Assembly: GCA_000092065.1 (NCBI GenBank)
Contig: CP000598.1
Origin: Ostreococcus lucimarinus
Lineage: Eukaryota
Reading direction: 5' to 3' (one strand)
Length of the DNA stretch: 64,000 nucleotides
The notes under the pieces were generated by a model. That model was not told the origin of the DNA, ran no database searches, and worked only from the letters and a program-made list of their open reading frames with translations. This document shows, piece by piece, positions 876 through 61,847 of this stretch. The first letter of the stretch is position 1; each line of letters starts with the position of its first letter. The translations under genes were made by a program, and so were the position numbers.

Positions 876-1205
876 CGCGAATGAAATCGGCGCGGACGTG
901 ATTCGGATGCGGTGGCGTTACGTTCTGTTCCGATCCGCGTGCGCACGCACTTTTGTCACGTACTCACGCACATTTGTGTGGCATGTGATTACTCATGTGT
1001 GAAAAAAACGTTCCGAACCGTTCCGCACGGTTGTTCGAGGGTCGTCATCGGCGGAGAACGACGACAAAATTAAGGGGTATAAAGATTAGCGAATATGTAA
1101 ATGTAAGGAGTAACCATGGGCTCCAACGTTAATCGCCTCGAAATGCTTTCCGTTATCGATGACTTGCATGAAAAGTATCAACATTTACACCATAAATCGA
1201 AGCTC

Positions 1206-4800: not shown

Positions 4801-7800
4801 ATAATTGCTTGACCGAGGACGAGACGGGAAGTTGCGATTGCTCTGATTACGACGTCGATTGTGGCGCCGCCGTAAAGCTGCCGATCACGGAATGGGACGT
4901 GAGCCTCATCGTGGATATGAACGAGCTATTTAAGGCTCGAGCAGCTTTCAATCAACCGGTTGGTGTTTGGAACACTAGTAGCGTGACGGATATGAGCGGC
5001 ATGTTTGAGAGCGCATCCGCGTTTAACCAGCCCGTTGGTAACTGGAACACGGGTAGTGTGACGGACATGAGCGGCATGTTTGAGAGCGCATCCGCGTTTA
5101 ACCAGCCCATTGGTAACTGGGCCACGGGCAGTGTGGCGGATATGAGCGGGATGTTTGAGAGCGCATCTGAATTCAATCAGAATATTAGTAGCTGGTCAGT
5201 CGCTTCTGTGGTGAACATGCAATCCATGTTTTCCTCTGCTTCATCCTTCGAGCAAGACATCACTGGATGGATTTCAACTAGTGTCACGACGGACATGGCG
5301 ACGGACATGTTTCTCTCTGCGACAGCTTGGCTGCGAACATTCGCACGCACAGATGGCGAAGACACCCCCCATGGTCCACCATCCGATTGGGGCGAACCGT
5401 GTGGCAATGGGTGGTACGATGAGAAAGTTCAGGGGGAGAAGGAGGATGACTTTTGTGAGCCAAAAGTGAACGGGATTGAAGTGAAAGGATGTGCAGATGA
5501 CTGCAAAGTAAAAACGAACTGGAAGTGCGACAATGTCGACTTGCTACGCCCCGGTGATGACTTCGACAGCTACAATTGTACGTGCGACAACCCGGTGGGC
5601 ACGTATGCATCACCTAATCTTGATAATGATTGTGCTCGCACAGATTGCGTTTATGTCGAACGGTGTCTCGCTAACGGCCTAGGCTGTGCGCCCGGTGCCG
5701 GTGGAATGTGGGACGTGGGACGTGGAACGTGGGACGCGGTGAACGCATGCGGCAAGTGCTTGAGGGCCGCTGATATTGCCGAGCTCCCACTCAACGAACG
5801 AAGTAGGCACAACAAGGCTGGCTATTACAAGACTGGGCAGACGTGCACGGCTTGTCCTGCGACATCAGCCGCGGGACTTTTCGCTGCGGCTGCGGTTGTC
5901 GTCGTCCTCGCTTTTTGTGGTTTCAAAGCCTCTCAATTGATGGGCGCTCAAGCGACGAACAATTTGAAGAAAATTGTCGAGTCGCTGCAGTTCTTCTCTC
6001 TTTCGCTCAGTATGAGTATCAAGTGGCCTGGGCCCGTACTCAATCTCGGTAAATATTTGGAAGCTTTCACGTTCAGCATTGAGTTTCTACGACCCCAATG
6101 CGTCGCTGCGGGGCTGGATTGGCTCAATATATTTTTGTCCTCGGTGTTTGTCGTTCCCGCTCTCATCTTCATAATCATCGTCGTGAACAATAGACGGGCG
6201 AGGCACCGTTACAAAACAACGGTGCGCGCGATCGACAGTGAACGACACGAGGATGGCGAAACGGTCTACTGGATCGAGAAACCAGGGTTCCTGTGGGGTA
6301 CGCGGAGAGCTTACGAGTCCAAGGGCGGAGATAAGATTGTTCGTGAGTTGCAGCGCCAGTATCGGTTTCGAGCCGCGCTTCGATCTTTCGGCGTACTGTC
6401 ACTGACCATCCTGTACCTTCCCATCGTGCGTATGTGCCTTCAGTCATACGATTGCATAAAGATAGACGGCGTGGATGGGCTTCGATTGGAGCATGACATA
6501 GATATCCTCTGTGAAAGCGAAGGGCACGTGATCATCCAGGCCGCCGCCGCGGTGATGTTGGCCATTGTCGGTATCGGCATGCCAATTTACGTCGTTATGC
6601 AAGTTCGTAAGATCCGTTTGAGTGGTAAACTGGATGATCCGCAGACTATCGACTCGTATGGTCCGTTCTACGACGTCTACCGGCGCGAGGAGCTCACACA
6701 TGATCACAAATTGGAGATTGCGAGGATTCGACAAACCGCGGTCGAGTCGTCCTCATTTCGACGAGGCGAAGGCACGAGCGACGAACGTCCTTTCGATGCA
6801 GCAACTGATGATATTGCAGAAGAAATCGCAAATGAAGTCAGGGTCGACACGGAAGAAGATTCAAGCGACGTCGATCGTGTTGACGTCGAGGACGATAGTG
6901 GCACTCCACCACCTCAGAAAGTTTCATCCGGTCTCGGTAAGCTCGCTCGGGCGTTAACGATGACGAAGTCTGCTTTAGGCCGGACGACGTCAGCGAAAGC
7001 GCGCGAACGGGCACATCGAATGCACTGGAAGGACAGGTTCGCGCTTCACTACCTGGCCGTTGAACTAGTGCAGAAGAGTTGCGTCATTTTGACGACGTCT
7101 CCGATAGTGGCCGAAACCGCGGTGAGCGGTTGGGCTCTGGTTGTCGTACACTGGTTTACCGGCGCCTTCGTCTACGTGTGTCAGCCTTGGCGCATCATGA
7201 CGCTCGGCTTCGGCAAATACAAGGTGCGAAATTGCTTGAACAAAGTCGAGTCCTTGGCTGGATTTTTGCAGGGCGTGGGACCGTTCTTGGCAATGATCTT
7301 CCCTGTTCAGAGAAACGAGTTCGGTGAGGTGAAGCAAACTGTGACACTCTCAGCCATAACTGTCCTGCTGACCATCATAATCACCGGGCTGCTTTCTATT
7401 CGTATCATTGTTTTCGTCGGCGAACGCGTCGCCGTCAAACGAAAGAAGATGGATATCGACAAGGATCCCGAGAAATGCATGCAAAATGTTCACAAACAAC
7501 TGGTCAAGCTCGCAACCAACAGAGCGATTGTGAGCATGTTTGCTTTCAAGGCAGATTTCGACATTAAGCGCCGTAAAGCACGCGCGAGGCTGGAAGATAC
7601 TCGCCAAGCGATGTTATCGCGCATCGATATCTTGAAGTCACAACAGACCGACGAGGACCATTCCGATAAAATTACCGCGTTGTACGAAGTGGCGAATGAA
7701 ATGGCACACATCGTGAATACGATCGTACCCCAAGCACCGCCAACAGGTCCAAACGCAGAAGGGTGTATCGAATTGCTGGATGAACAACTGGCATCAATTC

Positions 7801-9368
7801 TCAAGGACGTCGACGTCCGAGCGCAGGCGAACGCGTTAGACGCTCCGAATTCTGCGGCGGTACATATCGTGATGAAGGTCCACGCGTTCGATACAATCAT
7901 ATGTCGACTTGACGAACATTTGCTCGAATTCGCGGCGGCAGAACGTGTGAGTGAGCTCGCCGAGCTGGGTCGAAGACACGCTGAATTACGACATACGCGA
8001 CGTTGTGTCGCGATAGGTTTCGGCGACGCAGAGCTTCGAGCTACTTTCGATGCGCTAAGATCGTGCATCGAGGCACTCCGCCATGCCGTTGAGAACGACG
8101 ACTTCGAAGCTGTATTCACAACTTTCAATGGTGGGAAGGAGATCATTGATTCTCACTTACGATGGTGTCGGGATCAATGTGAATTGTTCAAGAGCGCCGA
8201 GGACGAGCACCCCGATTTCCTCGAGGACGAGCCTCCACTGACGACCGAGTTTTTCAAGGCGACAGTCAAGGTGATACAATCCCATGAAAAGCAACTGTCT
8301 AAATTTAAATCGGAATGTATTCGTAACTGGCCCCCGCTTTTCAAGAACTTTGGCCGCGTCAAGTACATACAAGGCTTTGCTGAGCAACTTCAGAATCAAC
8401 TCCATCTCGATCTCAATGAAAGCACGCCGGAGGAGGCCAAGGCTGTTTTCGATCAGGTGTTGGCCTTCACAGATGGCTTCGCGCTTTGGTGCGGCGATTT
8501 AGTGGCACAGGTCGAAGGCTCAGATGTCTTCATCTTGTTTGAGCCAATCGCCCGCGCGATGGTGGAAAGCTTGAAAGCCATCAGAGCAGACGCTGAGTCG
8601 CAAAGTGCACTCGCGAGGCAAGCATTGAGTACGATAGATTATGTGGTGACGCAACGGGCGTTGGCCGCAACGACGCGGTCGGGCTTGCAGACAGCACTCG
8701 CGGATGGTACGTCTGCGCTTGAAGACCAGCTCGCCGCAGAAATTGCAGACATGGACGCTGCGAAGATTTCTCGAGAGACTACTTTCGAGACCGAAAAGAT
8801 GCGCACCGAGGAAGCTTTGAATACATTAGAGCAAGAGTTGGACGGTAGGCGAGCGGTTTTAGAGGACGACATTCGATCGCAACAGGACACTATCGCGCGG
8901 CTACAAAACTTGAAACGGGAAGAGGCCGCGGCATCGAGCTCTATAAACCCGTTGAAATGGGAGCGTTTCAGTCGAAGCACTGAGCTCGCCGAAGCTGTAA
9001 GTGCACTCCGTATGAGCAAACAAAACTTGAAGAATGAAGAGCTTGCAAATGAGAAGGCCCGCGGGGATGCGCGTAAGGCGGTTCATTCGTTGGAACGGGG
9101 CCTGAAAAAGGACCTGGTCGAATGTGACGTCCGAGCAAAGAAAATCCGAGACGATGTGGCAAAGGAGCTGAAGAAACAAACTATGGATGCTCAGAGGAAG
9201 ACACCCGAAGATGCTAAAGCCCATAAGGCTAGTCTGGCTTCCAGGCGCGCGGTGTTCCAGCAACAACGCGCCGCCGCTAAACTCATCGCGAGCGAAAGTA
9301 GAGAAGCTACGCGAATTCAAGCACAGCTTGCATACTACATGCGAAATTTAAAGGCGCGCGAATCGTGA
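1839..9368 (+). CDS. Giant surface-type protein: DUF285 (PF03382, BspA-type LRR) repeat ectodomain, Cys-rich stalk, multi-pass membrane region, long coiled-coil tail
   Basis: Uninterrupted ORF (track 1545..9368, non-ATG start). The in-frame ATG at 1839 precedes the signal-like peptide [19 protein letters not shown]. About 35 repeats of F..A..FNQDI..WNT..VT.M..MF fall in four blocks, each with a Cys cap (..AVDSCL..G.C..). Roughly six hydrophobic helices lie between 5860 and 7440, followed by an acidic linker and a heptad-rich tail. Confidence 0.85.
1902..3655 (+). repeat. Internal tandem duplication, period 933 bp (1902-2722 = 2835-3655)
   Basis: The two 821-bp arms read identically base for base wherever I compared them. 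Antisense ORFs at 1845..2702 and 2802..3635 have identical peptides. The arms are separated by a 112-bp Cys-rich linker ([25 protein letters not shown]). Confidence 0.9.
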
Positions 9369-9703: not shown

Positions 9704-10190
9704 TGGAATCTCTGAACGCAAGGCGTGGATGTACATTAAACCATGAACGAGGCGGGCCACGGTTCGATTTTTTGGATTACAAGTGTAGGTCTACTTTTAC
9801 GTTTCGTGGACTCTGCTTGAGTCGGCCGATGTCACCATGTCAGTCAGGTGCTTCGAGTGCACTAGAGACGTGACCGCCCATACACAGGACGTCGAGCTCG
9901 GCGTGCCTGATTTCACGACTCGGCGACCATGGTTTGAAACCGAAATGACCATCGGCTTCAGGCCCAGGCGCGGCCGCAATGCTACTTTAAACTTAATATT
10001 TTTTTTTTGAAAAAAGAGTAGTAAGAGTAATAAAAATAAACTTTTTTTTGTTTGAGTTGGGGCACCCCAACATGATAAAACCGCACATCGCGGCGAGCCG
10101 CGCGACGACGATCACTTCGGTCACATTTCCAGTCAGTGATTCTCGTCGTGTGATTCATCGTGTTTGACGTCGACGTTGATGTACCACATG
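9704..10190. mobile_element. 487-bp insertion flanked by 16-bp direct repeats (small non-autonomous element, type unknown)
   Basis: taagatttcttcggaa (9688-9703) and taagatctcttcagaa (10191-10206) flank it. The paralogous site at 22125-22140 has one copy and no insert. The first ~315 bp recur at 16396-16703. There is an internal T-run/A-run at 10008-10016. Confidence 0.6.
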
Positions 10191-10227
10191 TAAGATCTCT
10201 TCAGAACCAATCGTGTGAGTGAAGTGT

Positions 10228-10725
10228 TCAGGCCAAGTCGCGTAACTCATCTAGCGTAAATTGATACTTGTCGAGACTGCGCTTTGAAGGCAGCGTGCCA
10301 CGCGCTCGAGCATTCTTGAGGCACGTCTTACGCAGTATTCTTTTCGCGTGCTGCTTGTAATAATTGAGTTGTCTGTAGTTACCATCGCCGCCGTCACGCT
10401 TCGGCGTATATTGGGCTCTGCTGTAGGCTTGACTCTCGTCCACGTTCTCGTGACACGCGTGTTTCTGGCTGCGTCCAGCAGCTCGGGAGTTGAATAAGCC
10501 GTCGCGCTTCTCTCTCATGTATGCACTTTTACGTTGATGGAGCTCTCCAGCTGGAATGTCCTTTTCGAGAACTCTCACGTCCGCGTCGCCAAACGTGAAG
10601 ATTGGATGTCGTGCGTATTTATGCGAGGCAAGGCGCGCTCTGAGCGAACCTGTCGTCGATCCGATGTACGTTTTGTCACATTTCGCATTATCGCTAAACA
10701 TTTCGTACACGCACCCCGTAGGCAT
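10228..10725 (-). CDS. GIY-YIG family nuclease-like protein (copy 1)
   Basis: ATG verified. N-terminus MPTGCVYEMFSDNAKCDKTYIGSTTGSLRARLASHK fits the GIY-(10-11 aa)-YIG motif plus the conserved Arg, with downstream E and N residues (AYMREK, FNSR). Basic C-terminal tail. Confidence 0.6.
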   Translation of the reverse strand: MPTGCVYEMFSDNAKCDKTYIGSTTGSLRARLASHKYARHPIFTFGDADVRVLEKDIPAGELHQRKSAYMREKRDGLFNSRAAGRSQKHACHENVDESQAYSRAQYTPKRDGGDGNYRQLNYYKQHAKRILRKTCLKNARARGTLPSKRSLDKYQFTLDELRDLA

Positions 10726-10894
10726 TTGTCCTGGTTACCTATCCATCCCTAAGAAAATATTGTTGCCTCCTCCTGCGGTTTGCAGTCACATTCGAGAGAC
10801 CATAGGTACTCGTGTCGCTGCGTGGGGTGCAAGGTCCGGGGTGTAGATATCGAACCGCCTGATTTCACACCTGGACGTTCGTGATCCGACGAGA

Positions 10895-11085
10895 CCTGAC
10901 GAAATGACGAACTTGTTTTGTCGTCCCCAAATTCGTCAGCCCGTCGTTCGGTCACACTTTGTGTGTACCAATGATGAAAATGACGAAATGTTAAAATATT
11001 TTAATGTTTATTTTTATTTTAGATCTATGACAAGCAACAGTGTAGACCTTTATGAAAACAGTTCGTCATTCGTCATTTCGTCAGG
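10895..11085. repeat. Inverted repeat around an AT-rich spacer (also at 22837-23027)
   Basis: cctgacgaaatgacgaac (10895-10912) is the reverse complement of gttcgtcat(tcgtcat)ttcgtcagg (11061-11085). The arms resemble an internal piece of the 9704-10020 element (cctgatttcac, caaaccatggtc). Confidence 0.7.
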
Positions 11086-11150
11086 ATCCAAACCATGGTC
11101 TTTTCGGTGTCTTGTTGAGTCTTCATATTGCAAATGTACGAATCACAAAA

Positions 11151-11669
11151 TTAGTATGAACACCAGACGACCGCCGGCGCGAGCTCCGTCTCCCCCGTGT
11201 ACCCATTGTTCTTCAGCCACTCGAAGCACCCGTCGCGGTCAATTTCCCAATAGACGCCCTTCTCGTCCCTACCTTGCCTCAGGTGGTCCTCTTCCATTGG
11301 GATCCTGTGGCCCTTTTCCTTCTTGAAGAAGTCCTTGAGCTTATTGCCGACCTTCGTCGCGCTATCTTGTCCACGCGCAGCCGCTGGCAACCACGTCTGG
11401 TATTCGATGAAGATGTCACTGTTGCGGATTTTATTTCCAACCCACTTCTCAGGGAATTCAACAGTGACGCAATGCTCAAACCATCGAGTGAACTTGGGCA
11501 TGCAGCCACGCTTCATTTCCGAATACGCGTCGGTCGTAGGTCTCGTGCGCTCCACATGATAACCGGTACGGAGAAGTTTATATTTATTAATTAAAGACTC
11601 GCGCGTGTTGGCGCTAAATGATTTTATTGCTGCCGAGAGACTCAAGTTTGGCCGTCGTTTGAGTCGCAT
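11151..11669 (-). CDS. Hypothetical protein (copy 1); weak resemblance to the C-terminal region of D5/P4-type primase-helicases
   Basis: The track ORF 11151..11726 starts at TTG; the first ATG is at 11669 (MRLKRRPNLSL..). The segment FTRWFEHCV..IFIEYQTWL..KVGNKLKDFFKK..GVYWEIDRDGCFEWLKNNGY is the basis for the tentative similarity. Function is unverified. Confidence 0.45.
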   Translation of the reverse strand: MRLKRRPNLSLSAAIKSFSANTRESLINKYKLLRTGYHVERTRPTTDAYSEMKRGCMPKFTRWFEHCVTVEFPEKWVGNKIRNSDIFIEYQTWLPAAARGQDSATKVGNKLKDFFKKEKGHRIPMEEDHLRQGRDEKGVYWEIDRDGCFEWLKNNGYTGETELAPAVVWCSY

Positions 11670-11746
11670 CGATGGGTCGCGCCCGCCGATATAACGCCGG
11701 CGTTTCGGACACGATCTTGAAAACAAGCACTGGTTGACTTGATTGA

Positions 11747-14272
11747 TTAGGAAACCTTATCCGTGCCTTTTACGCTGAGCCCGGTCATGGACGGCTTCGT
11801 CGGCATGGTGAACGCGGTGTAGTCCGCCGCCGTGGGCACCGTGATGCTCGTGTCGTACGACATCCCGGAGCACGCCGACGCATCGGCGGGAGCAAGCATT
11901 TCGACACCACTTTCGAGTTTCAAGACGTACCGGTCGCCAGTCGATGGTTGTTTGAACGTGGTGCCATCGGGGATCAGGACATCCGGACGGCGATGGTAAC
12001 CATTGTTGTCGTCGCACTCCTCGTTGCCATACTGGTCGACCTCGGGCGCCGCGCGCGAACCAGTCATCGGATTGAAGCAAATGAACGGCGCGTCGCCCAA
12101 CCAACCGCCTTCGTAACGCACGTTGAGATTCACCCCGGAGTAGTCGGTACCGGATGGAGAGCGCAGCAACACGGCGTCCGTGGGTATCTTGCCTTGAAGC
12201 TGGAGAGGCGCATCCATGAACTTCTTTGACGCGGAGTCCGAAGGATCTTCGAGCCACGCCATGCCCTCCCAATTGCTTGAGCTCCACTCGTAGTGCACAT
12301 CCAATTTGTTGGGTTCCTCGCAAACGTCGGTAGTGGCGGTGCAACTCAAAGTGTCGAGGTTCGCAGGTGTAGCTTCGAAGAGAACCATATGAACTTCTCC
12401 CGAGTCAAAGAATGAGTTGGTTGGGTCCATTACGACTTCAGCGCCGAGGGTGCCGGAAACGTCTTCCTTCAACGAGCCGGTATCTTTGTCGAAGACGTAC
12501 TTTTTATAAGTGCTTCGAGCGTCGTTGTATCCGTTCGGCGAGCCGTAGAACTGGCTGTCGTGACTGCTCGCACTCGATAGCTTCGTCTGGTCGATACACC
12601 GCTCGCCGCACGTGAGTGCGAGGTGGCTGCTGAGCGACCCAGGGGGGACGGTTTGCGCGTCAGACACTTTGAAGTGCGTCAGGTTAAGCAAACTCGCAGA
12701 GCCTCGGCCGAAGATGCTTCCCCAGCAGCGTATGATTTGGTTGTCAATGTCAGCCATCGTGAGCGCACGCGGAGTCGTGATTGAGTTCGTGTTCAGCGAT
12801 CCACCGTTCCAAGTTCGCTTCGACGACAACACGAGTGCGTTCGCGTCGGAGTCATACCTGAACTTGACCTCAACTTCTGCAGCGTTAGTGTCATCCCAGA
12901 ACCAGCCTGTGATCGTCGCCCCTTGGTAGTCGCTTGCGCTTCGCACCGTCGCCGTGAACTTGTACAACACCCCGCGTGAGACTTTGAGCCTCTTGTTCAC
13001 GTTCAGTATCGGATCATCCCAATCGACAATTTCCTCTACTACGTTCCCGTCGGTGAACGCGGTTTGAGCGATAGTCTTCTCGGCGGTACTGAGCGCGGTG
13101 TCGGAAATGTAGTCGTAATCGGAAATGTAGAGATTGCCCGGATAGTGCAGATCAGCATTATACGTCTTGCCGTCGCTGCCTGTAGCCTGAAGATGCACGT
13201 AGCTTTGAAGGTTCACCTTCGCCCCGTTGCTGTCGTACGCGCCGTAGCGCTCACCGAAGAACGATCTGTTCTCGAGTTCATCGCAGAATGACTGCCCGTA
13301 CGCCTTCGTCTTGACGAGCGTAGCGGTAGTCACCAATTGACCCGCTTGTGTCGAACCATTATCAAAGTCGATGGTCTGGAAAGAGGCCTTCGTGATGTCG
13401 TTTTCTGCGCGCGATTTAGCACCCGCGGTGAATGAATTGCTGCCTCGTGTCACCTCTTCCCACCACGTGACCCCGGTCGCCGTGCAATCCGAATCCGCGT
13501 CGGTGGTTTCGCACTCGCGACGAACCACACCTTTGATGCGTTGGGACGCGGTCGAGCCAGTCGGCGATTGGTACGTAAAGGTAAAGTTTTTCACCAAGAT
13601 TTTGTCAGACTTGATGGCGACGTCATCGCGCTTGACGATCATTTCCGTGTCGATGTTCGGCATTTCTGGGGTATCGCTGAGGGCTACCCAGACGTTCGTC
13701 TTGAAATCACGGGTATCGCTCGCGTCGTCGATGTCTGGGCCCGTGGCGTTGACGACCCAACGGTACGTAACCTTACCCTTGATTCGGTCGCCGTCGCTGT
13801 TGTCACAGTGGAAAGGATCGATCTCAGCGATGTATGGGCCAGTGTTCAGGTTCGCCGTCCAGTTCACCGAGGCGACGTAGCAAAGAACCATGTTTGGTAT
13901 CTGGAAAATTTCGGTACTTACAGCGTCGACGAACGTCTCCGCCGGCGGCGCCGTGGCGTAGTCGGACGTCGAAGAGAACGAAGACACTTCGAGAGGCGTC
14001 ACCTCGACGAGCGAACGACCATCGATTCGAGACGAACCAGAAGACGTCGTCGAAACACCCTCTGACGGGATCATGGTGACTTTACGCGGCGTCAACGCCG
14101 CCTTGAGCGCGTTCGTCTTCGCCGCGCCCGACAGCCCGCTGACGGTGGTCGGGGTCGGGGCCGGGGCCGGGGTCGCGTCGTCATCCCTGAGCCCGATGCC
14201 GAGGCCGGTGCCAAGGGCGACCACCACGGCGGCGACACCAACGATCGCGATCGCAACGCCACGTCTCACCAT
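11747..14272 (-). CDS. 841-aa membrane-anchored protein with a large Cys-containing extracellular-type domain, unknown family (copy 1)
   Basis: ATG verified. N-terminal anchor MVRRGVAIAIVGVAAVVVALGTGLGIGL, a PAPAPTPTT linker, then a long uninterrupted ORF with a non-repetitive, protein-like sequence. Confidence 0.75.
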   Translation of the reverse strand: MVRRGVAIAIVGVAAVVVALGTGLGIGLRDDDATPAPAPTPTTVSGLSGAAKTNALKAALTPRKVTMIPSEGVSTTSSGSSRIDGRSLVEVTPLEVSSFSSTSDYATAPPAETFVDAVSTEIFQIPNMVLCYVASVNWTANLNTGPYIAEIDPFHCDNSDGDRIKGKVTYRWVVNATGPDIDDASDTRDFKTNVWVALSDTPEMPNIDTEMIVKRDDVAIKSDKILVKNFTFTYQSPTGSTASQRIKGVVRRECETTDADSDCTATGVTWWEEVTRGSNSFTAGAKSRAENDITKASFQTIDFDNGSTQAGQLVTTATLVKTKAYGQSFCDELENRSFFGERYGAYDSNGAKVNLQSYVHLQATGSDGKTYNADLHYPGNLYISDYDYISDTALSTAEKTIAQTAFTDGNVVEEIVDWDDPILNVNKRLKVSRGVLYKFTATVRSASDYQGATITGWFWDDTNAAEVEVKFRYDSDANALVLSSKRTWNGGSLNTNSITTPRALTMADIDNQIIRCWGSIFGRGSASLLNLTHFKVSDAQTVPPGSLSSHLALTCGERCIDQTKLSSASSHDSQFYGSPNGYNDARSTYKKYVFDKDTGSLKEDVSGTLGAEVVMDPTNSFFDSGEVHMVLFEATPANLDTLSCTATTDVCEEPNKLDVHYEWSSSNWEGMAWLEDPSDSASKKFMDAPLQLQGKIPTDAVLLRSPSGTDYSGVNLNVRYEGGWLGDAPFICFNPMTGSRAAPEVDQYGNEECDDNNGYHRRPDVLIPDGTTFKQPSTGDRYVLKLESGVEMLAPADASACSGMSYDTSITVPTAADYTAFTMPTKPSMTGLSVKGTDKVS

Positions 14273-14409
14273 CGTCGCGCGTTGAAATGCGGCGACGACA
14301 AGTGGCGACGGTGACGCGATCTGCCCGCACGCAATTCAATTCCTTCGGGTCACCTTATCTTTTGGAGCCCCCGGAAACGCGACTGTTTACCAATACGATG
14401 GTTCCCGGG

Positions 14410-14685
14410 TATTGATTACTGGGCCTGTTGGCGCCCCGCGGGTGTGTGTGTGCCAGCCCGTAGGGTTTAAGGTTTAGGATCCGAAATATGGAGCCTCGCT
14501 ATTAAGCCGGGGATCCTCCGCGGGCACGCGCCCCCGCGGGCGTGTGTGTTTTCGCGGTCGGTCGGACGGGAAGCCTGTTGGCGCCCCACGGGTTTGTGTG
14601 TCGGTCCTTAGCGTTTGGGGTTTAGTATCGGACATACGGAGCCTCACTATTTAGCGGTATGACCACATATATTAATTGATTTATA
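14410..14685. repeat. Degenerate telomere-like / subtelomere-like block (1.5 units); related block at 17466-17640
   Basis: Shared unit: ggggatcctccgc..ccgcgggcgtgtg..ttcgcggtcggtcggacg..ccgttggcgccccgcgggtttgtgtg..agggtttag.ggttaggatcggacatatggagcctcactatttagc. Confidence 0.8.
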
Positions 14686-14759
14686 CCATTCATCCCGCGC
14701 ATAAAATCGGGTAGATTACTGTACAGTAATCTACCCGACTTTATGCGCGGGATGAATGG
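14686..14759. repeat. 74-bp near-perfect palindrome (36 of 37 arm positions pair)
   Basis: ccattcatcccgcgcataaaatcgggtagattactgta|tacagtaatctacccgactttatgcgcgggatgaatgg; centre ctgtacag. Weaker arm similarity extends about 25 bp on each side. Confidence 0.9.
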
Positions 14760-14936
14760 CATAAATCCCATAGTATATGGGGACCGGACCGGCGGGACGT
14801 GTGATTTTTTACCGTAGGGGTCATGATTGGTCGTTCGGGGGTACTCGTATGAAATAATGAAACACCATACTTTTATTTACATTTTGGTTTATTAAAAAAA
14901 CCCGTACGTGCATTTACTACAGAATTGACCACTTTT

Positions 14937-15065
14937 CGCGCGGGTTTCACCAGAAAGCTTCAAAAATCGTGCCTTTTCTAAAACTCAATTTTCGCTAGGG
15001 TTTAGCGCCCCCGGTTTTCCGAGGATGCGGGCAGATCTCGCCGTCGGCGCCACTCGTCGACGACC
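14937..15065 (+). promoter_or_regulatory. Telo-box 5' module, copy B
   Basis: AGGGTTTAG at 14997-15005, gccactcgtcgacg at 15049-15062, upstream ATG at 15025, main ATG at 15066 in the context gaccATGG. Confidence 0.6.
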
Positions 15066-16181
15066 ATGGCCTCCCCGTCGCTCGATGCCGTGCGTTGGAG
15101 CGAATACCGGGCGCTCATGCAAGCGTGGGAAGCGTTTAACCCACACAGGGAGCTCCTGCGTCGGTTTTTACAGAAGCAATCGCACACGGAGCAGTGCCCA
15201 CCCGGCGTCCCGTACGTACCAGATCTGCCGGAGCCGGAGTACTTCGCCGTGAAGAGACGAATCGAGGCCGGGGAAACCGTTCCATGTCCTGGATTCTTAC
15301 GCGAACGCGACAACCGGCGCAATCAATGCCGCTGCGGGGCTCCACTCAGAGTTGATGACACTGGCAATATCTCCTGCACTTCCAAAATTCCCCGTCATGA
15401 GAACTATGGTCCTGTACCTCGTTGCTGTTGCTGGGCCGAAGAAGAGCACGCTCGTAACCAACGACATGACATGCCGCCGTATATTTTAAGGCCGCCACCC
15501 ATAGTGTCCCCCCCTCAAGTACCACCGTCGTCTCAAGTGCTCTTGAGCTTTTTGGAGGGGGTCAGGCCAAGCATGAACGCCAACTACCTGCGATGCGTTC
15601 AAGACATAGACGAAGAGCTCGCTCGTCTGAATGAGCAGCTTGCGGACAACAGCATTTCAACGACGAGGCGTGAAGCGATTCAACAGCATATAGTGAGCGA
15701 ACGCTCCAAACTTGAGGCCAAAGACACACAGTTACAAGATTTTTTTAACACGACGACCGCACTGGCAGAATCCGTGCACACGTTCGAGCACAGAGTGGCA
15801 GAGAAATACCAGAAAGCTGTGGATGCATACATTAAAGCGCAACTGGATGAAGTGGTCGTACCTCCGGATAGTAGAGGGAATCCAAAGTTTAAGGACTCAG
15901 TCGATGGCATCGACAGAGAGTTGGCCAAGTTAGAATCAGAAAATGGAGGCATCTCCAACGACAGCGCTCGCGCTCGCGTCGCCTCCAAACGTAAGAGCGT
16001 GGAAGAGTGTGAATCAGAGCACAAGCGCCTCAAAACCACTTCGGTTGAGTACAACTTGTCTATTTTGAAAGGGAGTTTGGAAAAAGACAAATCTATGTCT
16101 GCTGAAGACAAAAGACGCTGGGAATGCGTCATAAACGCCGTCGGGTTGTTACGAGCAAACGATGCACCAAGAACGCCGTAG
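15066..16181 (+). CDS. Coiled-coil protein of unknown function, paralogue of 18177..19220
   Basis: ATG verified. Shared block NYLRCVQDIDEELARLNEQLADNSISTTRREAIQQHIVSERSKLEAKDTQL versus NYLRTVERIDKNIQVLEAQLQDENISETRRSVIPQHIEDTRAKLKEQDNSL. Confidence 0.7.
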   Translation: MASPSLDAVRWSEYRALMQAWEAFNPHRELLRRFLQKQSHTEQCPPGVPYVPDLPEPEYFAVKRRIEAGETVPCPGFLRERDNRRNQCRCGAPLRVDDTGNISCTSKIPRHENYGPVPRCCCWAEEEHARNQRHDMPPYILRPPPIVSPPQVPPSSQVLLSFLEGVRPSMNANYLRCVQDIDEELARLNEQLADNSISTTRREAIQQHIVSERSKLEAKDTQLQDFFNTTTALAESVHTFEHRVAEKYQKAVDAYIKAQLDEVVVPPDSRGNPKFKDSVDGIDRELAKLESENGGISNDSARARVASKRKSVEECESEHKRLKTTSVEYNLSILKGSLEKDKSMSAEDKRRWECVINAVGLLRANDAPRTP

Positions 16182-16186
16182 CAACA

Positions 16187-16245
16187 GTATGGGCAAACAG
16201 TTAGGCGTTCTCCATGGCCTCCATTCGCGCGACCAGAGCGTTGAC
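16187..16245. repeat. 58-bp junction module, second copy at 20768-20825
   Basis: gtatgggcaaacagttag...ttctcca..gcctccattcgcgcgaccagagcgttga. It lies 5 nt after the TAG of 15066..16181 here, but inside the ORF at 20768. Confidence 0.8.
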
Positions 16246-16395
16246 GCGCTCTTCGAGTTCGTCGATGCGGCGTTGTTTAGCGTCGTTCGCGCTCTCTACA
16301 TCGGCGCGACATAGAATAACGATAATCTATATCTGCTATATCTGCTTAATATTCTGCTTAAGATTTCGGCACCCTCGCTTAAGATCTCTTCAGAA

Positions 16396-16703: not shown

Positions 16704-16756
16704 CTATAGTACTTTTGGTGTTTAAACGTGTTCGTGATATGATTGATAGTCCGTGA

Positions 16757-17407
16757 TTATACGTCGACTTTTGCGGGCGCCTGTTGGACGTAGATGACTT
16801 GCGGCTGCTGCGGCCGCGTCGCCACGGCGGTGGCGATGAGCTGGTCGCGTCGGTACGCGAAGCACCCGCACCGCCCACAGTAGCAGCACGAGACGATGAG
16901 CAACGTCAGGCCGACGACGGTACCAATGATGATGCCCGCGATCGCGCCACCGTCTGGTTTACAGCAGTCGTCACCGCAGCATACGTTTTGGCCGCCCGTG
17001 TACATACTGCACCATTTACCGCCTTTTTTGTGGAGTGGTGGGCACCCGTGGGCGCCGTCCCAGCATTTGGCTCCATTGGCAACTTCCGTGGCGATTTCTG
17101 TTCCACACGAGGTGTAACTGGAAATTGTGTCCGTACACTTGGACGGGCACGATTGGTCGATCGAGTTGCCATACGGTGGCGGTCCCGCGCTGCACCCGAA
17201 ACAGTCTGAGCACACACCGACCGTCACGCCGTTGTAGGTCCCGGTGTTGTAACAGAACTCTTCGCTCGATGCCCAGGGGTTCGCGCTCGCGTAGCCGCTC
17301 GAAACAACGCAGTCGGTGTGGGTTGAACACGTGTCGCCCGCGTCCGCGCGCGCGGTGTGCGCGACGGCGAGGCCGAAAACGAACGGTACGAGGAGGTTCT
17401 TAAACAT
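16757..17407 (-). CDS. Cys-rich type I membrane protein (signal peptide, Cys-rich ectodomain, one TM helix, short tail)
   Basis: ATG at 17407 gives MFKNLLVPFVFGLAVAHTARA. Many Cys residues (CCGDDCC). TM helix AIAGIIIGTVVGLTLLIVSCCYC. The track ORF extends to 17464 from a non-ATG start. Confidence 0.6.
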   Translation of the reverse strand: MFKNLLVPFVFGLAVAHTARADAGDTCSTHTDCVVSSGYASANPWASSEEFCYNTGTYNGVTVGVCSDCFGCSAGPPPYGNSIDQSCPSKCTDTISSYTSCGTEIATEVANGAKCWDGAHGCPPLHKKGGKWCSMYTGGQNVCCGDDCCKPDGGAIAGIIIGTVVGLTLLIVSCCYCGRCGCFAYRRDQLIATAVATRPQQPQVIYVQQAPAKVDV

Positions 17408-17465
17408 CTTTGGCGTGGGTTTATCTCGCAAAAGGATTTCAGCGAGGCTTGAGGTGCGCCGCAAA

Positions 17466-17640
17466 GTGAGGCCCGGAGATCCGGGGATCCTCCGCAGCCC
17501 CGCGGGCGTGTGCCTGGCGTGTGCCCTTCGCGGTCGGTCGGACGAGGGGCCCGTTGGCGCCCCGCGGGTTTGTGTGCCAGCCCCAGGGTTTAGGGGTTAG
17601 GATCGGACATATGGAACCTCACTAATTAGCCGCATGACCT
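17466..17640. repeat. Degenerate telomere-like block, homologous to 14515-14685
   Basis: See 14410-14685. Contains cagccccagggtttaggggttaggatcggacatatggaacctcactaattagc. Confidence 0.8.
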
Positions 17641-17838
17641 CATACATTAAGTTATTTATATCTAGTCATCGCGCGAAATGGCGTGGGTAAATTACCGTAC
17701 TAGGGTTTCCGTAAATAAAATACGTACCGAAAATAATGAATTAATTTACACGGGCGTGCCACGACGTCGTCGCACGCGCTCGTGAAAATTTGGTTGACGG
17801 CTTGGATTCGAGATTTTGGGGAGGTAAAATTCGGCCAA

Positions 17839-17880
17839 ATCCCGCGCATATATTACTGTACAGTAATCAAAGCGCGGGAT
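17839..17880. repeat. 42-bp palindrome related to 14686-14759
   Basis: atcccgcgcatatattactgta|cagtaatcaaagcgcgggat; same ctgtacag centre and same atcccgcgc/gcgcgggat arm ends. Confidence 0.85.
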
Positions 17881-18009
17881 GTGGCCAAAGTCTTTGGGTC
17901 ACAGCCCCTCACTTTGGGGGCTGCAGTGACGGGATGTGGGAATTTTACCGTATGGGTCGTGACTCGTCGTTGGGGGTACTACTATGAAATCCCATAATTC
18001 TATTGTACA

Positions 18010-18176
18010 TAGGGTTTAGAAATTAGGGTTTAGACGTCAAAAATCGCTCGGGTTCCATCAGAAACGTGTCAAAAACGGGCCTTTTCTGAAACTCGATTTT
18101 TGCTAGGGTTTAGCGCCCCCGGTTTTCCGAGGATGCGGGCAGAGCTCGCCGTCGGAGCCACTCGTCGCCGCACACG
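18010..18176 (+). promoter_or_regulatory. Telo-box 5' module, copy C
   Basis: tagggtttagaaattagggtttagac at 18010-18035, core with AGGGTTTAG at 18105-18113, and a 15-codon uORF (18133-18180) whose TGA overlaps the main ATG (ATGA). Confidence 0.6.
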
Positions 18177-19758: not shown

Positions 19759-19946
19759 TAGGGTTTAGAAATTAGGGTTTAGACATCAAAAATCGCCGAG
19801 GTTCCATCAGAAAGTTGTCAAAAACGTGGCTTTTCTAAAACTCGATTTTTACTAGGGTTTAGCGACCTCCGGTTTTTCGGCGGAGGAATTGCGTGCGGGC
19901 AGATCTCGTCGTTGTCGCCACTCGTCGACGCGGCGATGCTCTCAAC
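19759..19946 (+). promoter_or_regulatory. Telo-box 5' module, copy D
   Basis: tagggtttagaaattagggtttagac at 19759-19784, core AGGGTTTAG at 19853-19861, gccactcgtcgacg at 19917-19930. The upstream ATG of copies B and C is GTG here. Confidence 0.6.
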
Positions 19947-20767
19947 ATGGCAAAGGTGAAGATAATGCTAATATTGTCGATGGTGTTGATACTGCGCATG
20001 CCGAGCGCACTCGCAGGCGCACTCACACACGCACTCCTCCGTGTGGGTGGTCCACGTGTAAGGCAAGCTGTCGAAAAAGGGATGAAACAAGGCATTATGG
20101 ATTCGTTTCCAGGAGGCGTCCAGGACCTCCTCGCATACTTGCACCGCCACAGAGAGGACGAAATCAAACAGGAGTTTGGGTGCATGGCGCTCATGATCAT
20201 GTGCCGGGAAAACACTGAGAACAGACGCATCGCCGGAGAGCAGGGCGCGATCCAGGCCGTCGTGAACGCCTTGAACCGCCACAGAGAGAACAAGGAAGTG
20301 CAGAGGGACGGACACATGGCGCTCGTGATCATGTGCGAGGACAACACCGAGAACAGACGCATCGCCGGAGAGCAGGGCGCGATCCAGGCCGTCGTGGACG
20401 CCTTGAACCGCCACAGAGGGAACAGGGAAGTGCAGAGGGACGGACAACTGGCGCTCGCGATCATGTGCAAGGACAACACTGAGAACAGACGCATCGCCGG
20501 AGAGCAGGGCGCGATCCAGACCGTCGTGGACGCCTTGAACCGCCACAGAGGGAACAGGGAAGTGCAGAGGGACGGACAACTGGCGCTCGCGATCATGTGC
20601 AAGGACAACACTGAGAACAGACGCATCGCCGGAGAGCAGGGCGCGATCCAGACCGTCGTGGACGCCTTGAACCGCCACAGAGGGAACAAGGAAGTCCAGG
20701 CGAACGGGCACATGGCGCTCGCGAGCATGTGCATTAACAACACTGAGAACAGACGCATCGTAGACGC
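19947..20767 (+). CDS. ARM/HEAT-like repeat protein, probable exon 1 (the ORF itself continues to the stop at 20825)
   Basis: ATG at 19947 (MAKVKIMLILSMVLILRMPSALAG). About 4.5 tandem 44-aa units NTENRRIAGEQGAIQAVVDALNRHRGNREVQRDGQLALAIMCKD, which match the armadillo-repeat pattern. Confidence 0.6.
20110..20760 (+). repeat. 132-bp (44-codon) tandem repeat array inside the ARM-like gene
   Basis: Unit starts (aacac.gagaac) are at 20211, 20343, 20475, 20607 and 20739. Units 20343-20474 and 20475-20606 differ at 2 nt. Confidence 0.9.
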
Positions 20768-20817
20768 GTATGGGCAAACAGTTAGTTATTCTCCACAGCC
20801 TCCATTCGCGCGACCAG
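20768..20817 (+). other. Candidate 50-nt GT-AG intron joining the ARM ORF to the downstream ORF
   Basis: GTATGG donor at 20768 and CAG acceptor at 20815-20817. Removing it restores the frame (..RRIVDA|ALKDSGRSDDAQINALY..). Hypothesis only. Confidence 0.3.
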
Positions 20818-21832
20818 AGCGTTGAAGGACAGCGGGCGCAGTGATGATGCGCAAATAAACGCACTGTACGCGATTGCAAACGAGATGGCGCACGCTGTGA
20901 ACATGATCTCGATTCAAGGTGTCGCTGAAGGCCCGGGCGTTGAAGAACGAGTAAAACACACACAAGATTTCCTACAGCAACTTTTGTCGGACGTCGACAT
21001 CAAACTTGAGATCGAAGAAAAGCAAAACGCCGAGGCTCTGCGTGTGGTATTGCGAGTGCACGCGTATGGTCGTGCCATGAAAATTATCGAGGATCACATG
21101 CTAGAATATGCGCGCGCTGAACAAGTGGAGGAGCTGGCCGTGCTCGGACAAGAATCTGCGGCACTGTTAGAAGAACAAAACCTCCTTTCCATGGGTTTTG
21201 GCGTCAAGGAGCTGAATATGTCGATACTGGCAATCGACGCGGAGCATTTCACTGTGCACCTAGAGAAAGCTACTTCCCTGGACGAAGTCGGCAGTGCTGT
21301 GGCCATTCTCAACGCCGTCAATTCCATTGCAGTCCGTCATCTCGAGTGGAGAGATGCGAGCGTTGCAACTTTTAGCCACCTTGAAACCGAAGAGTCCATT
21401 GGTATTGAAGTCAAAATCAACAGGGACGTACTATATTCTGCTGCGATGCTTCTGAAAGATCACGAATCCCAGCTGAACCAAGAACTGGCGAGGCGCGCGC
21501 GCGAATGGAAGCTTCTGTTTAAGAATTTTGGAAAAGTGAAATTCAACCAGACGCTTGAAGAAATGGTTCAGGTGGAGCTCACCTCGCCTGAAGGCGCGGA
21601 CGCTGATTTAACACGCCGTGCTAAAAAATTTGTGGATTGGTGCGTGGAATCTTCACAGCAGCTGAGCCGAGGGGAGTTTAACCAGCGTCTTCCTGGGATT
21701 ACGGAAACGGCATATATCAGCCTAAAATCCCTCGCACAGAAGTCTGCCAGTTCGCTCGTTAAGATCGCACAAAAAACAGCTGCATCGAGGCGTAGCAAAA
21801 CAAAGACGTCAATATTCGGGTTTGCGCGCTAA
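20818..21832 (+). CDS. Domain paralogous to residues encoded at ~7640-8520 of the giant gene; probable exon 2 of the ARM gene, or a 5'-truncated relic
   Basis: INALYAIANEMAHAVNMI vs [53 protein letters not shown] vs [46 protein letters not shown] vs [11 protein letters not shown]. There is no ATG at its 5' end. Confidence 0.5.
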
Positions 21833-22124: not shown

Positions 22125-22161
22125 TAAGATTTCTCCAGAACGAATCGTGTGAGTGAAGTGG

Positions 22162-22659
22162 TCAAGCCAAGCCACGCAACTCATCTACCGTAAATTGATA
22201 CTTGTCGAGACTGCGCTTCGAAGGCAGCGTGCCGCGCGCTCGAGCATTCTTGAGGCACGTCTTACGCAGTATTCTTTTCGCTTGCTGCTTGTAATAACTG
22301 AGTTGTCTGTAGTTACCATCGCCGCCGACCCGCTTCGGCGTATATTGAGCTCTGCTGTAGGCCGGACTCCCGTCCACGTTCTCGTGGCACGCGTGTTTCT
22401 GGCTGCGTCCAGCAACTCGGGAGTTGAATAAGCCGTCGCGCTTCTCTCTCATGTAGGCACTTTTACGTTGATGGAGCTCTCCAGCTGGAATGTCCTTTTC
22501 GAGAACTCTCACGTCCGCGTCGCCAAACTTGAAGATTGGATGTCGTGCGTATTTATGCGAGGCAAGGCGCGCTCTGAGCGAACCTGTCGTCGATCCGATG
22601 TACGTCTTGTTACATTTCGCATTATCGCTAAACATTTCGTACACGCATCCCGACGGCAT
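22162..22659 (-). CDS. GIY-YIG family nuclease-like protein (copy 2)
   Basis: Same 165-aa ORF as copy 1 with about 9 aa substitutions (for example CDK/CNK, FTF/FKF, DES/DGS). The frame is intact. Confidence 0.6.
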   Translation of the reverse strand: MPSGCVYEMFSDNAKCNKTYIGSTTGSLRARLASHKYARHPIFKFGDADVRVLEKDIPAGELHQRKSAYMREKRDGLFNSRVAGRSQKHACHENVDGSPAYSRAQYTPKRVGGDGNYRQLSYYKQQAKRILRKTCLKNARARGTLPSKRSLDKYQFTVDELRGLA

Positions 22660-23092
22660 TTGTCCTGATTACCTATCCATCCCTAAGAAAATATTGTTGC
22701 CAAAAGTGCTCCTCCTGTGGTTTGCAGTCACATTCGAGAGACCATAGGTACTCGTGTCGCTGCGTGGGGTGCAAGGTCCGGGGTGTAGATATCGAACCGC
22801 CTGATTTCACACCTGGACGTTCGTGATCCGACGAGACCTGACGAAATGACGAACTTGTTTTGTCGTCCCCAAATTCGTCAGCCCGTCGTTCGGTCACACT
22901 TTGTGTGTACCAATGATGAAAATGACGAAATGTTAAAATATTTTAATGTTTATTTTTATTTTAGATCTATGACAAGCAACAGTGTAGACCTTTATGAAAA
23001 CAGTTCGTCATTCGTCATTTCGTCAGGATCCAAACCATGGTCTTTTCGGTGTCTTGTTGAGTCTTCATATTGCAAATGTACGAATCACAAAA

Positions 23093-23611
23093 TTAGTATG
23101 AACACCAGACGACCGCCGGCGCGAGCTCCGTCTCCCCCGTGTACCCATTGTTCTTCAGCCACTCGAAGCACCCGTCGCGGTCAATTTCCCAATAGACGCC
23201 CTTCTCGTCCCTACCTTGCCTCAGGTGGTCCTCTTCCATTGGGATCCTGTGGCCCTTTTCCTTCTTGAAGAAGTCCTTGAGCTTATTGCCGACCTTCGTC
23301 GCGCTATCTTGGCCACGCGCAGCCGCTGGCAACCACGCCTGGTATTCGATGAAGATGTCACTGTTGCGGATTTTATTTCCAACCCACTTCTCAGGGAATT
23401 CAACAGTGACGCAATGCTCAAACCATCGAGTGAACTTGGGCATGCATCCACGCTTCATTTCCGAATACGCGTCGGTCGTAGGTCTCGTGCGCTCCACATG
23501 ATAACCGGTACGGAGAAGTTTATATTTATTAATTAAAGACTCGCGCGTGTTGGCGCTAAATGATTTTATTGCTGCCGAGAGACTCAAGTTTGGCCGTCGT
23601 TTGAGTCGCAT
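23093..23611 (-). CDS. Hypothetical protein (copy 2 of 11151..11669)
   Basis: Identical to copy 1 except for one substitution (EYQTWL to EYQAWL). Confidence 0.45.
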   Translation of the reverse strand: MRLKRRPNLSLSAAIKSFSANTRESLINKYKLLRTGYHVERTRPTTDAYSEMKRGCMPKFTRWFEHCVTVEFPEKWVGNKIRNSDIFIEYQAWLPAAARGQDSATKVGNKLKDFFKKEKGHRIPMEEDHLRQGRDEKGVYWEIDRDGCFEWLKNNGYTGETELAPAVVWCSY

Positions 23612-23688
23612 CGATGGGTCGCGCCCGCCGATATAACGCCGGCGTTTCGGACACGATCTTGAAAACAAGCACTGGTTGACTTGATTGA

Positions 23689-26220: not shown

Positions 26221-27354
26221 CGTCGCGCGTTGAAATGCGGCGACGACAAGTGGCGACGGTGACGCGATCTGCCCGCACGCAATTCAATTCCTTCGGGTCA
26301 CCTTATCTTTTGGAGCCCCGGAGATGCGACTGTTTACCAATACGATGGTTCCCTTTTTTCGGTCGCGAAAGCGCGCGGTCGCCGGGTCAACCAACACCTT
26401 CATCTCCGGGGGGGATCGGAGATTGTTTTTTACGGTCGCGCGCGCGGTCGCCGCGGACGCCCCCGCCCTCGTCGACGCCGCGCTGACTGTCGCGCGCTGA
26501 CTGACACGCGCTGACCGACGCGCGCGCGATCGAACGCCGCGAGTGGGGAAAGGCGAACGCGCGACGTCGTCGCGCGCGCCCCCGCGCGTCCCGGACCGAA
26601 CCGCGCGTCGTCGTCGTCGCCGTCGCCGTCGCGCGCGTACGCTTCGGACCGCGAAAATCGTTTTTCGTCGCGGGGGGACTGCGGTGCGGGTCGTCTCACA
26701 CTTCGGGACGCCGACGATGGTGTCGTCCGGCGACGCCGACGTCGACGACGCGGTCGAACGACGCCATCGGCGCGGTCGCGGTCGCGCCGTTCGCGATCTT
26801 CTGCCGTCGTCCTCGGCGGCGCGCGCGAACACCGTCCCGCCGTTTGAAGCAACCGGTCGAGGCGCGCTCCCGAGGTGGTTTTGCAAGAGCTGTCGGAAAG
26901 CGCTCGACGTGTTTCGTGATTTCGACGGGGAGCTGAAGACGTGTCGACTGTGTTTGCGCGCGCGCAAGAAAGACGCGAAACGCAAACGCGCGCTACGGCG
27001 GGCGGACGCGAAAAGGTCGGGCGACGGCGACGGTAAAAAAGGCGCGGCTTCGTAGAGAAGCCGAACGCAGGGAACGACGACGAGTCGCGGATGCGCGCGA
27101 AACGATCGATCTTTGATTCGACACGCCTTCGGTATAGTAGTGTGTTTTGCTCTGTAGCCTCGCGTGTTGTAACTACCGTTGTACATTTACATCAATGCGT
27201 CGTCGCGTTCGCGGCGATTTTACGTCGTCGTTCGTTCGCGACGCTTCGTTGGACATGGCGCTTCGACACAGAAGAATCCGACGCGCGCACAGTCCGTGGT
27301 GTCGCGCGCACGTCATCGCACACGTCTCATTTCTTATTTCTCCGCTCCAACTCG

Positions 27355-61825: not shown

Positions 61826-61847
61826 AAGTTAACGTGCCCATCGAGTA

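Follow-up and report, generated by a model that had tools for sequence, protein, structure and literature searches.

How does telomere-like sequence come to lie beside ordinary genes in the interior of a chromosome? The question is raised by a stretch of 64,000 nucleotides of Ostreococcus lucimarinus DNA (GenBank assembly GCA_000092065.1, contig CP000598.1), hereafter called the window, in which a unit holding degenerate telomere-type blocks begins near position 14410 and recurs 3 kb further on. The original prediction, drawn from the bare sequence, took these blocks for subtelomeric DNA moved into the region or for telomeres healed within it. Comparison with related contigs leads us to a different answer: the unit is probably one arm of a family of modular, non-coding repeats that are dispersed in O. 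lucimarinus-type genomes, with a telomeric block inherited as part of the repeat, a siting in the 5' flanks of genes and exchange-prone dyads at which arms meet head to head. No account of this family was found in the literature on Ostreococcus subtelomeres, telo-boxes, MITEs (miniature transposable elements with inverted repeats) or foldback elements. It is apparently new to the literature and of known kinds, namely a dispersed palindromic repeat with a short interstitial telomeric stretch or telo-box. Even if the family should be a decayed dispersed repeat, a tempting misreading is corrected, in that its telomere-like blocks are no sign of healed telomeres.

Three copies of one repeat in the window

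The window holds three copies of the repeat, ~80% identical, which we call arms A (partial), B and C. The predicted arrangement of 1.5 units in tandem and one more 3 kb off stands. The limits first placed at 14685 and 17640 were wrong: beyond them the copies remain homologous along an AT-rich tail, up to a sharp end at a dyad. The arms and the structures that adjoin them are the following.

14421-14508, plus strand: arm A, a partial copy (profile E = 4e-26)
14509-14721, plus strand: arm B, a full copy (profile E = 2e-49), 74-87% identical to independent metagenome copies
14724-14784, minus strand: short partner arm, the family's terminal 61-64 nt inverted (CAGTAATCTACCCGAC...; profile E = 1e-9 to 3e-11)
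14663-14782, no strand: palindrome centred on TA 14722-14723, with 60-nt arms that are 88% complementary
17483-17697, plus strand: arm C, a full copy with its slot at 17585-17601 (AGGGTTTAGGGGTTAGG; profile E = 9e-52)
17830-17889, no strand: small palindrome consisting of a dyad only (…CCCGCGCATATATTACTG TA CAGTAATCAAAGCGCGGGATG…), like the family centre, with a weak profile match (E = 0.15-0.5)
14403-14420, plus strand: terminus-like motif cccgggtattgattactg, between the end of a segmental duplication (14405) and arm A

Arm A comprises the core TTGGCGCCCCGCGGGT, a GT tract, a telomere-like slot at 14461-14478 (TAGGGTTTAAGGTTTAGG) and GGAGCCTCGCTATTAAGCC, after which, in this strain, its tail is replaced by arm B. 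From the gene side, arm B runs through a GC-rich subrepeat (ccccgcgggcgtgtgtgttttcgcggtcggtcggac), the core 16-mer, the slot at 14608-14625 (TTAGCGTTTGGGGTTTAG), GGAGCCTCACTATTTAGC and the AT-rich tail to ...GGGTAGATTACTG; its last letters, ...ATTACTG, reach 14721 and are followed by TA at 14722-14723 and by CAGTAAT from 14724, so that the terminus is read again on the other strand. Arm C ends in ...GGGTAAATTACCG (...ATTACCG, 17697) and TA at 17698-17699, beyond which the flank has no match to the arm. Past the short partner arm lies a different module (14790-14854) common to three of the contigs compared (L020, L024 and L037), and the partner arm of the 17830-17889 dyad adjoins the dyad directly in the paralogous contig L021. 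The motif at 14403-14420 was likened to the family terminus GGGGGTAAATTACTG by eye only.

That the arms are related is confirmed: the core 16-mer TTGGCGCCCCRCGGGT has three matches in the window against 0.05 expected, and the window copies align with independent metagenome copies at E = 1e-40 to 1e-53. A further remnant, predicted directly after the stop of the gene ending at 52366, is not demonstrably a member of the family, as its 13-nt identity lacks any extension (blastn E = 0.32, profile E = 8).

52369-52382, plus strand: claimed remnant aGGTTTAGGATCGG, right after the stop codon of a STELLO-type glycosyltransferase open reading frame (ORF)

Short telomere-like motifs soon past a stop codon were seen twice, here (3 nt 3' of the stop) and in L019 at 4433-4446 (73 nt 3').

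Anatomy of the family

The contigs compared with the window, labelled L001-L037, are metagenome contigs, among them short-read assemblies and a polished long-read contig, L037. A single scan of Joint Genome Institute (JGI) metagenome contigs, with a pattern made of the core and the GGNNCCTCRCTA block, matched 24 loci; together with contigs found via window proteins, these gave 54 core-motif sites, listed in register, and an alignment of 22 distinct arms. Marine metagenomes contribute no fewer than 13 distinct copies beyond those of the window, with pairwise identities of 68-91% and a median of 77% (13 arms at clearly different loci).

An arm is ~170-215 nt long, and its consensus includes …CGCGGTCGGTCGGACGAGGGGCCCGTTGGCGCCCCGCGGGTGTGTGTGCCAGCCCTTAGGGTTTAGGGTTTAGGATCGGACATATGGAGCCTCACTATTTAGCCGTATGACCACATATATTAATTGATTTATGGCTATCATCCCGCGACATCCCGGGGGTAAATTACAG. 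Outward from the gene side, it begins with between one and three GC-rich subrepeats (CCCCGCGGGTGTGTG…TCGGTCGGAC), which are followed by a variable slot and then by GGAGCCTCACTATTT, a conserved block. Next comes an AT-rich tail (CATATATTAAT…ATTTAT…) in which the CATATATTAA and ATTTAT stretches are invariant, and the arm closes with a sharp end of the form GGGGGTAAATTAC(A/T)G-TA. Beyond the TA lies either unrelated DNA or an inverted second arm, which may be of full length or shortened to 7-64 nt. Arms are often paired head to head at their sharp ends, forming palindromes of 120-330 nt whose ungapped arms span 56-97 nt and are 80-88% complementary. The palindromes are composite, because the second arm often comes from another subfamily, and their dyad centre varies by whole C(A/T)GTA pentamers, with one in L037, two in most copies and three in L031. 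As DNA, the palindrome at 14663-14782 has a computed fold of -52.9 kcal/mol (z = -11.0), which none of 200 shuffled sequences equalled, and is predicted to be able to form a hairpin or cruciform.

Two other identities were tried and rejected. For an RNA gene, Rfam at gathering thresholds returned nothing, a permissive scan gave sub-threshold matches of microRNA models to the hairpin, and no tRNAs were found. For a viral origin, three scans of viral contigs, one each for the arm, for the dyad and for a telomere array with the core motif, gave no match.

The telomeric block is a filler of a fixed slot

The telomere unit of Ostreococcus is TTTAGGG (PMC3318450). In 16 of the 22 aligned arms the slot has the consensus GTGTGTGCCAGCCCTTAGGGTTTAGGGTTTAGGATCGGACATAT, which in its context reads GTGTGTGCCAGCCC-TTAGGGTTTAGGGTTTAGG-ATCGGACATAT, and TTAGGGTTTAGGGTTTAGG is a perfect 19-nt piece of (TTTAGGG)n, or 2.7 units. 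The remaining 6 of the 22 arms hold 4-9 nt in the same place, and in the alignment further copies carry a module of 60-80 nt between identical left and right flanks of the slot. A short exact telomeric run therefore interrupts sequence that is colinear in copies without the run, as in short interstitial telomeric sequences. The telomeric nature of the motif, as first proposed, is supported by this 16-copy consensus in the unit proper to Ostreococcus, and the block very probably derives from, or mimics, the real telomeric repeat.

Within the window, the likeness to telomeres amounts to one block of 17-19 nt per copy (14461-14478, 14608-14625 and 17585-17601). Exact TTTAGGG is not enriched, with four sites against 2.8 expected, one of which falls within the three copies. 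Tandem Repeats Finder detected no telomeric tandem array in the window, and no copy of the family exceeds 2.7 units.

Telomere healing within the region is not borne out by these observations: the slot is fixed, the same flanks enclose it in at least 13 other copies beside ordinary genes, and there is no array. Because the block is one alternative filler of a slot in a conserved repeat, it predates the divergence of the copies and was inherited with the repeat; having been copied with the repeat, it excludes local telomere healing at 14.4 kb or 17.5 kb of the window. The telomeric stretch would have arisen once, in an ancestral copy, and would later have been passed on by copying. Its most likely source may be a double-strand break patched with telomeric filler.

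Arms lie in the 5' flanks of unrelated genes

In the window and at ~11 independent loci, the ORF closest to an arm on its GC-rich side starts at a distance of 55-250 nt, and its transcription leads away from the dyad. The ORFs so placed belong to at least nine unrelated families, and the genes beside arms, which include those for a light-harvesting protein, ABCF, HECT, MIF4G/MA3, a mitochondrial carrier, RbfA and DUF285 proteins, among others, are ordinary genes of no mutual relation. Two such genes adjoin the arms of the window.

11747-14272, minus strand: 841-aa gene for a membrane-anchored protein without Pfam match; ATG ~150 nt from arm A, transcription directed away from the dyad
16757-17407, minus strand: 216-aa gene for a Cys-rich secreted or membrane protein; ATG 76 nt from arm C, transcription directed away from the dyad

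The 216-aa gene and its arm have been kept together at 93% (L037) and 78% (L021) DNA identity. On the sense strand of the adjacent gene, the telomere-like block reads CCTAAACCCTAAACCCTAA, which contains two canonical AAACCCTAA telo-boxes, placed, in the window as at the ~11 independent loci, 130-330 nt upstream of the ATG, with an AT-rich TTAATATATG ~50 nt further upstream. Arms held in a fixed orientation in 5' flanks would supply or overlap promoter or 5' untranslated region (5'-UTR) sequence.

A second family of modules also bears telo-boxes; these are the ones called telo-box modules in the original prediction and D12 modules here.

14938-15006, 1236-1304, 18046-18114 and 19795-19863, plus strand: D12 telo-box module, four copies, each ending ...TTTTGCTAGGGTTTAGC

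The D12 modules lie 70-340 nt upstream of the ATG of plus-strand genes, among which are paralogous genes for coiled-coil proteins and a giant DUF285 gene. The motif TAGGGTTTA has 10 sites in the window, nine of them on the plus strand, against 0.06 expected in total. One of the ten falls within the unit (arm A, 14461); the rest are in the D12 module family and its neighbours, upstream of plus-strand genes, including further pairs beside D12 at 18010/18024 and 19759/19773. The claim that nearly all such motifs share one orientation thus holds as a count, nine of ten being on the plus strand, and fails as a sign of a single telomere polarity: two module families are mixed here, and they lie oppositely relative to their neighbouring genes, so that sharing an orientation does not argue for one telomere polarity. 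Each of the 11 AAACCCTA cores in the window is intergenic, lies upstream of a start codon and falls within 1.2-19.9 kb, and none was found in two core-gene contigs (L012 and L032). The motif is thus tied to these modules and is no general promoter signal here.

One D12-type module travels with a gene. The 371-aa gene and its upstream telo-box module form a 1.29-kb cassette (window 14963-16254) that recurs in L007 (1653-2944), a 64-kb metagenome contig, where it sits between TatD and bestrophin genes, among core genes, and is flanked by two copies of the ~40-nt D12 core. These flanking cores suggest gene shuffling via recombination between promoter-type repeats.

Probable rearrangement at the dyads

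The history of rearrangement that had been suspected from the sequence is borne out by a 4.2-kb segmental duplication, by strain alignments that stop at the repeat and by a 15.5-kb indel between strains. The duplication (10170-14405 and 22125-26353, 93-100% identity) holds the 841/843-aa gene and stops ~15 nt before arm A; its first copy is followed by the repeat arms, and its second, without an arm, runs into the 3' end of another ORF. Alignments of the window with L024, L028 and L029 (98.8-99.4%) and with L037 (93%) end at 17699/17700, and past this dyad three different sequences are found among the related contigs.

Arm A, beside the 841-aa gene, likewise has three continuations across the assemblies. 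It is followed by arm B in the window and in L005, which confirms the A/B junction. It runs through its own tail to its own dyad and an inverted arm of another subfamily in L001, L002, L004, L013 and L025, all of which match the window at 98-99.8% in the arm A region. In one contig, it continues into the right flank of arm C. Since alignments stop at dyads and the partner arms there differ, palindrome-associated rearrangement is suggested.

The indel itself was seen in L024 (1-1705) and L029 (1-2279), which match window 244-1181 and 16705-17700 with 1181 joined to 16705 via ~340 nt. The 15.5 kb between these two positions, which include the giant DUF285 gene as well as copy one of the 841-aa gene, are absent or elsewhere in other strains.

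Hairpin-prone dyads would, on this pattern, act as places where flanking DNA is exchanged, possibly through cruciform breakage and rejoining or through recombination between arms. The 149-kb contig of the window is presumably chromosome 18, the small outlier chromosome of O. lucimarinus CCE9901. Of six ORFs of the window that were compared, two are exact matches to CCE9901 proteins (ABP00612/XP_001422295 and ABP00661/XP_001422344) encoded on a contig of 149,386 bp. The content of the window is typical of what would be expected of a small outlier chromosome: the GC level is 47-65%, internal duplications are numerous, and a giant DUF285 repeat gene is present beside nucleotide-sugar and glycosyltransferase genes; telomeric sequence was found at neither edge of the window. 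Exchange at dyads would add to the mosaic, hypervariable structure of such a chromosome. To our knowledge, it is not known at which sequences the small outlier chromosome of Mamiellales is broken and rejoined. Its size and structure shift within days of virus exposure and are strongly variable among strains (PMC5082852, PMC5498103, PMC13390643). With its palindromes, its siting in 5' flanks, the ends of alignments that fall on it and its telomeric stretch, the repeat family is a concrete candidate for these break sites.

A bolder proposal, which we consider unlikely, concerns the 'viral immunity' chromosome of Ostreococcus: its gene-plus-flank modules would be cut and rejoined at the dyads, as fragile or recombinogenic sites, and the block would be either a scar of telomerase-assisted repair or a co-regulating telo-box. 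If true, the dyads would be a sequence-level driver of the hypervariability of the outlier chromosome.

Several points weigh against reading the unit as an arm of an exchange-prone, gene-flanking family. Short-read metagenome assembly may produce mis-joins at repeats and palindromes, which makes junctions seen in a single contig (L006, L031 and L034) weak, and contigs that are unlike at a dyad are perhaps paralogous loci rather than alleles. The slot copies compared are likewise paralogous only, so that insertion and loss of the telomeric filler look the same. The spread of the family is compatible with segmental duplication, ectopic recombination or transposition alike. The arm is absent at the second copy of the 841-aa gene (23689-26220) and at the P0081 paralogues of the 216-aa gene; it is therefore not essential to either gene, since a duplicate and some paralogues do without it. 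Finally, the promoter, 5'-UTR and telo-box roles that the arms may have are suggested by their sequence and position.

Competing explanations

Of the other origins that can be envisioned, a subtelomeric one deserves the most attention and is nevertheless unlikely. Under this explanation, the GC-rich, gene-side part of the arm and its 2.7 telomere units would together be a 5'-truncated subtelomeric element with a telomere stub, captured internally and then duplicated. In O. lucimarinus, 36 of the 42 chromosome ends share Type-I (at most 411 nt) or Type-II (at most 844 nt) sequence adjoining the telomere, with some elements truncated and junctions in various phases (PMC8287924). The polarity of the arms is the expected one, as every arm has its G-rich strand oriented 5' to 3' toward the dyad, starting at the GC-rich modules, like [subtelomere]-(TTTAGGG)n; the GC-rich part could therefore derive from such an element. 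Moreover, past ...CAGCCCTT other copies continue into unrelated sequence exactly where the block would start, as truncation followed by telomere addition would give. Yet the TCGGACATATGGAGCC... that follows the block also follows the alternative fillers, so that family sequence stands on both sides of the block and the block does not terminate a chromosome fragment, and a telomere array with the core motif had no match in viral contigs or in bacterial and archaeal genome contigs. No telomeric array was found within ~5 kb of the 24 pattern loci, which is not evidence against a subtelomeric origin, since the pattern demanded the tail after the block and was blind to true chromosome ends. The 595-kb contig L037 was also walked from a homologue, 18 kb in, to position 1, where it begins in coding sequence with no telomere.

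Less likely again is a non-autonomous cut-and-paste transposon of the MITE or foldback type. The arms would then serve as long terminal inverted repeats, with 5'-CAGT as a Tc1/mariner-like terminus and TA as the target site, the palindromes would be abutting ends and the extra bases at some centres would be excision footprints. A terminus of the form TA-CAGT is typical of the Tc1 family. The arms resemble such an end, and they have sharp conserved ends with TA between them where they abut. They also contain tandem subrepeats, as foldback inverted repeats do, and the same arm is found beside different sequences; in O. mediterraneus, an element of 1001 bp whose inverted repeats measure 225 bp has been put forward as a non-autonomous transposon (PMC13390643).

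The arrangement of the ends is nevertheless the wrong one for such an element. The conserved ends abut at the dyad, no convincing outward-facing pair was found, and the profile search showed none bracketing an element in the window. None of 47 loci showed a precise empty site, and no near-identical copies occur at different loci, identity between distinct arms reaching 91% at most, with the median of 77% given above. The central TA belongs to the C(A/T)GTA pentamer repeat, and variants of ±5 nt are whole units, as slippage gives. Footprints of Tc1-type excision, considered for the extra central CTGTA in L031 and a 17-nt mini-palindrome in L034, were dropped because L037 has lost one C(A/T)GTA unit, which fits pentamer slippage. 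Nor would random insertion be expected to yield the fixed orientation and distance to gene starts seen at ~11 loci. A Pfam scan of 34 neighbouring ORFs revealed no cognate transposase; the sole transposase is that of an independent hAT element in L019. This is a complete 3.3-kb transposon of the hAT superfamily (L019 532-3823) that has inserted where an arm has its gene-side edge. It encodes a 911-aa transposase with DUF659 and the hAT dimerisation domain, has the ends TAGGGGTGCT.../...AGCAGGCCTA and GATAC repeats in subterminal position, and shows an 8-bp duplication, CATAAACC.

That the likeness to telomeres is a coincidence, a GT-rich stretch of an ordinary repeat unrelated to telomeres or telo-boxes, might be argued from the degeneracy of the window copies, with their one exact TTTAGGG in three, and is highly improbable against a 16-copy consensus that restores a perfect 19-nt telomeric stretch and against the 10 occurrences of TAGGGTTTA in the window where 0.06 were expected.

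The surrounding region

Further repeats and neighbours were noted. The giant DUF285-type ORF (window 1545-9368) has 2607 codons built of 25-residue repeats with a period of 75 nt, and contains an exact internal duplication of 933 nt (2016-2315 = 2949-3248). At 20053-20844, ~6 copies of a 132-nt tandem repeat, the central ones 91-95% identical, lie inside ORFs that overlap on both strands. Inverted repeats of 38-46 nt, 87-96% complementary and 16 kb apart (45780-45865 and 61847-61929), flank a cluster of nucleotide-sugar dehydrogenase, epimerase and glycosyltransferase genes, and the segment between them could be invertible or mobile. In L037, which comes from a related strain, an ORF with a D5_N primase-type domain (12420-14186) is found at 2 kb from the 216-aa gene's homologue; this domain is usually of viral origin.

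Comparison with known systems

The closest systems in the same species are the Type-I and Type-II subtelomeric sequences of O. lucimarinus (Chaux-Jukic et al. 2021, PMC8287924), which are also multi-copy and adjoin telomeric repeat directly, and whose truncations suggest deletion and repair. Compared by description, the arms differ from them in lying internally, at least 14 kb from the window ends, and in having 2.7 units followed by more family sequence.

In primates, rodents and the horse, short interstitial telomeric sequences were inserted in the course of double-strand-break repair (PMC2246262, PMC7215372). The block shares with them a small number of exact units set in colinear sequence and the existence of related copies with the same flanks and without the stretch. 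Unlike in the mammalian case, the copies compared here are paralogous copies of a repeat rather than orthologous loci, and the stretch has multiplied with the repeat family. The telo-box of Arabidopsis and rice has a preferred position of ~-60 to +180 around the transcription start (PMC2576244). As in plants, the arms present two overlapping AAACCCTAA on the gene sense strand, here at 130-330 nt upstream of the ATG; the motif of the arms is a candidate element in Ostreococcus and, being absent from the core-gene contigs L012 and L032, is not a general promoter signal there.

With foldback elements and MITEs, and with the 1001-bp spacer of O. mediterraneus (PMC13390643), the family shares a non-coding, dispersed nature, long inverted arms with short tandem subrepeats and residence in regions that rearrange, the spacer being compared with the arms by description only. 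It departs from foldback elements and MITEs in that its sharp conserved ends lie at the centre of the palindrome rather than outside, and in that a target-site duplication, an empty site and a recent copy were all looked for in vain.

The human palindromic AT-rich repeats (PATRRs), which measure 190-600 bp and mediate recurrent translocations (PMC1851657, PMC4940405), differ from the present palindromes in several respects. The arms here are 80-88% complementary, are often of mixed subfamilies and have GC-rich outer parts; there are many dispersed copies, placed in the 5' flanks of genes, and rearrangement is read from assemblies rather than from de novo events. Like PATRRs, however, the palindromes are of similar size (120-330 nt here), have an AT-rich centre and a strong predicted hairpin, and appear to exchange their partner arms at the centre or a few bases from it.

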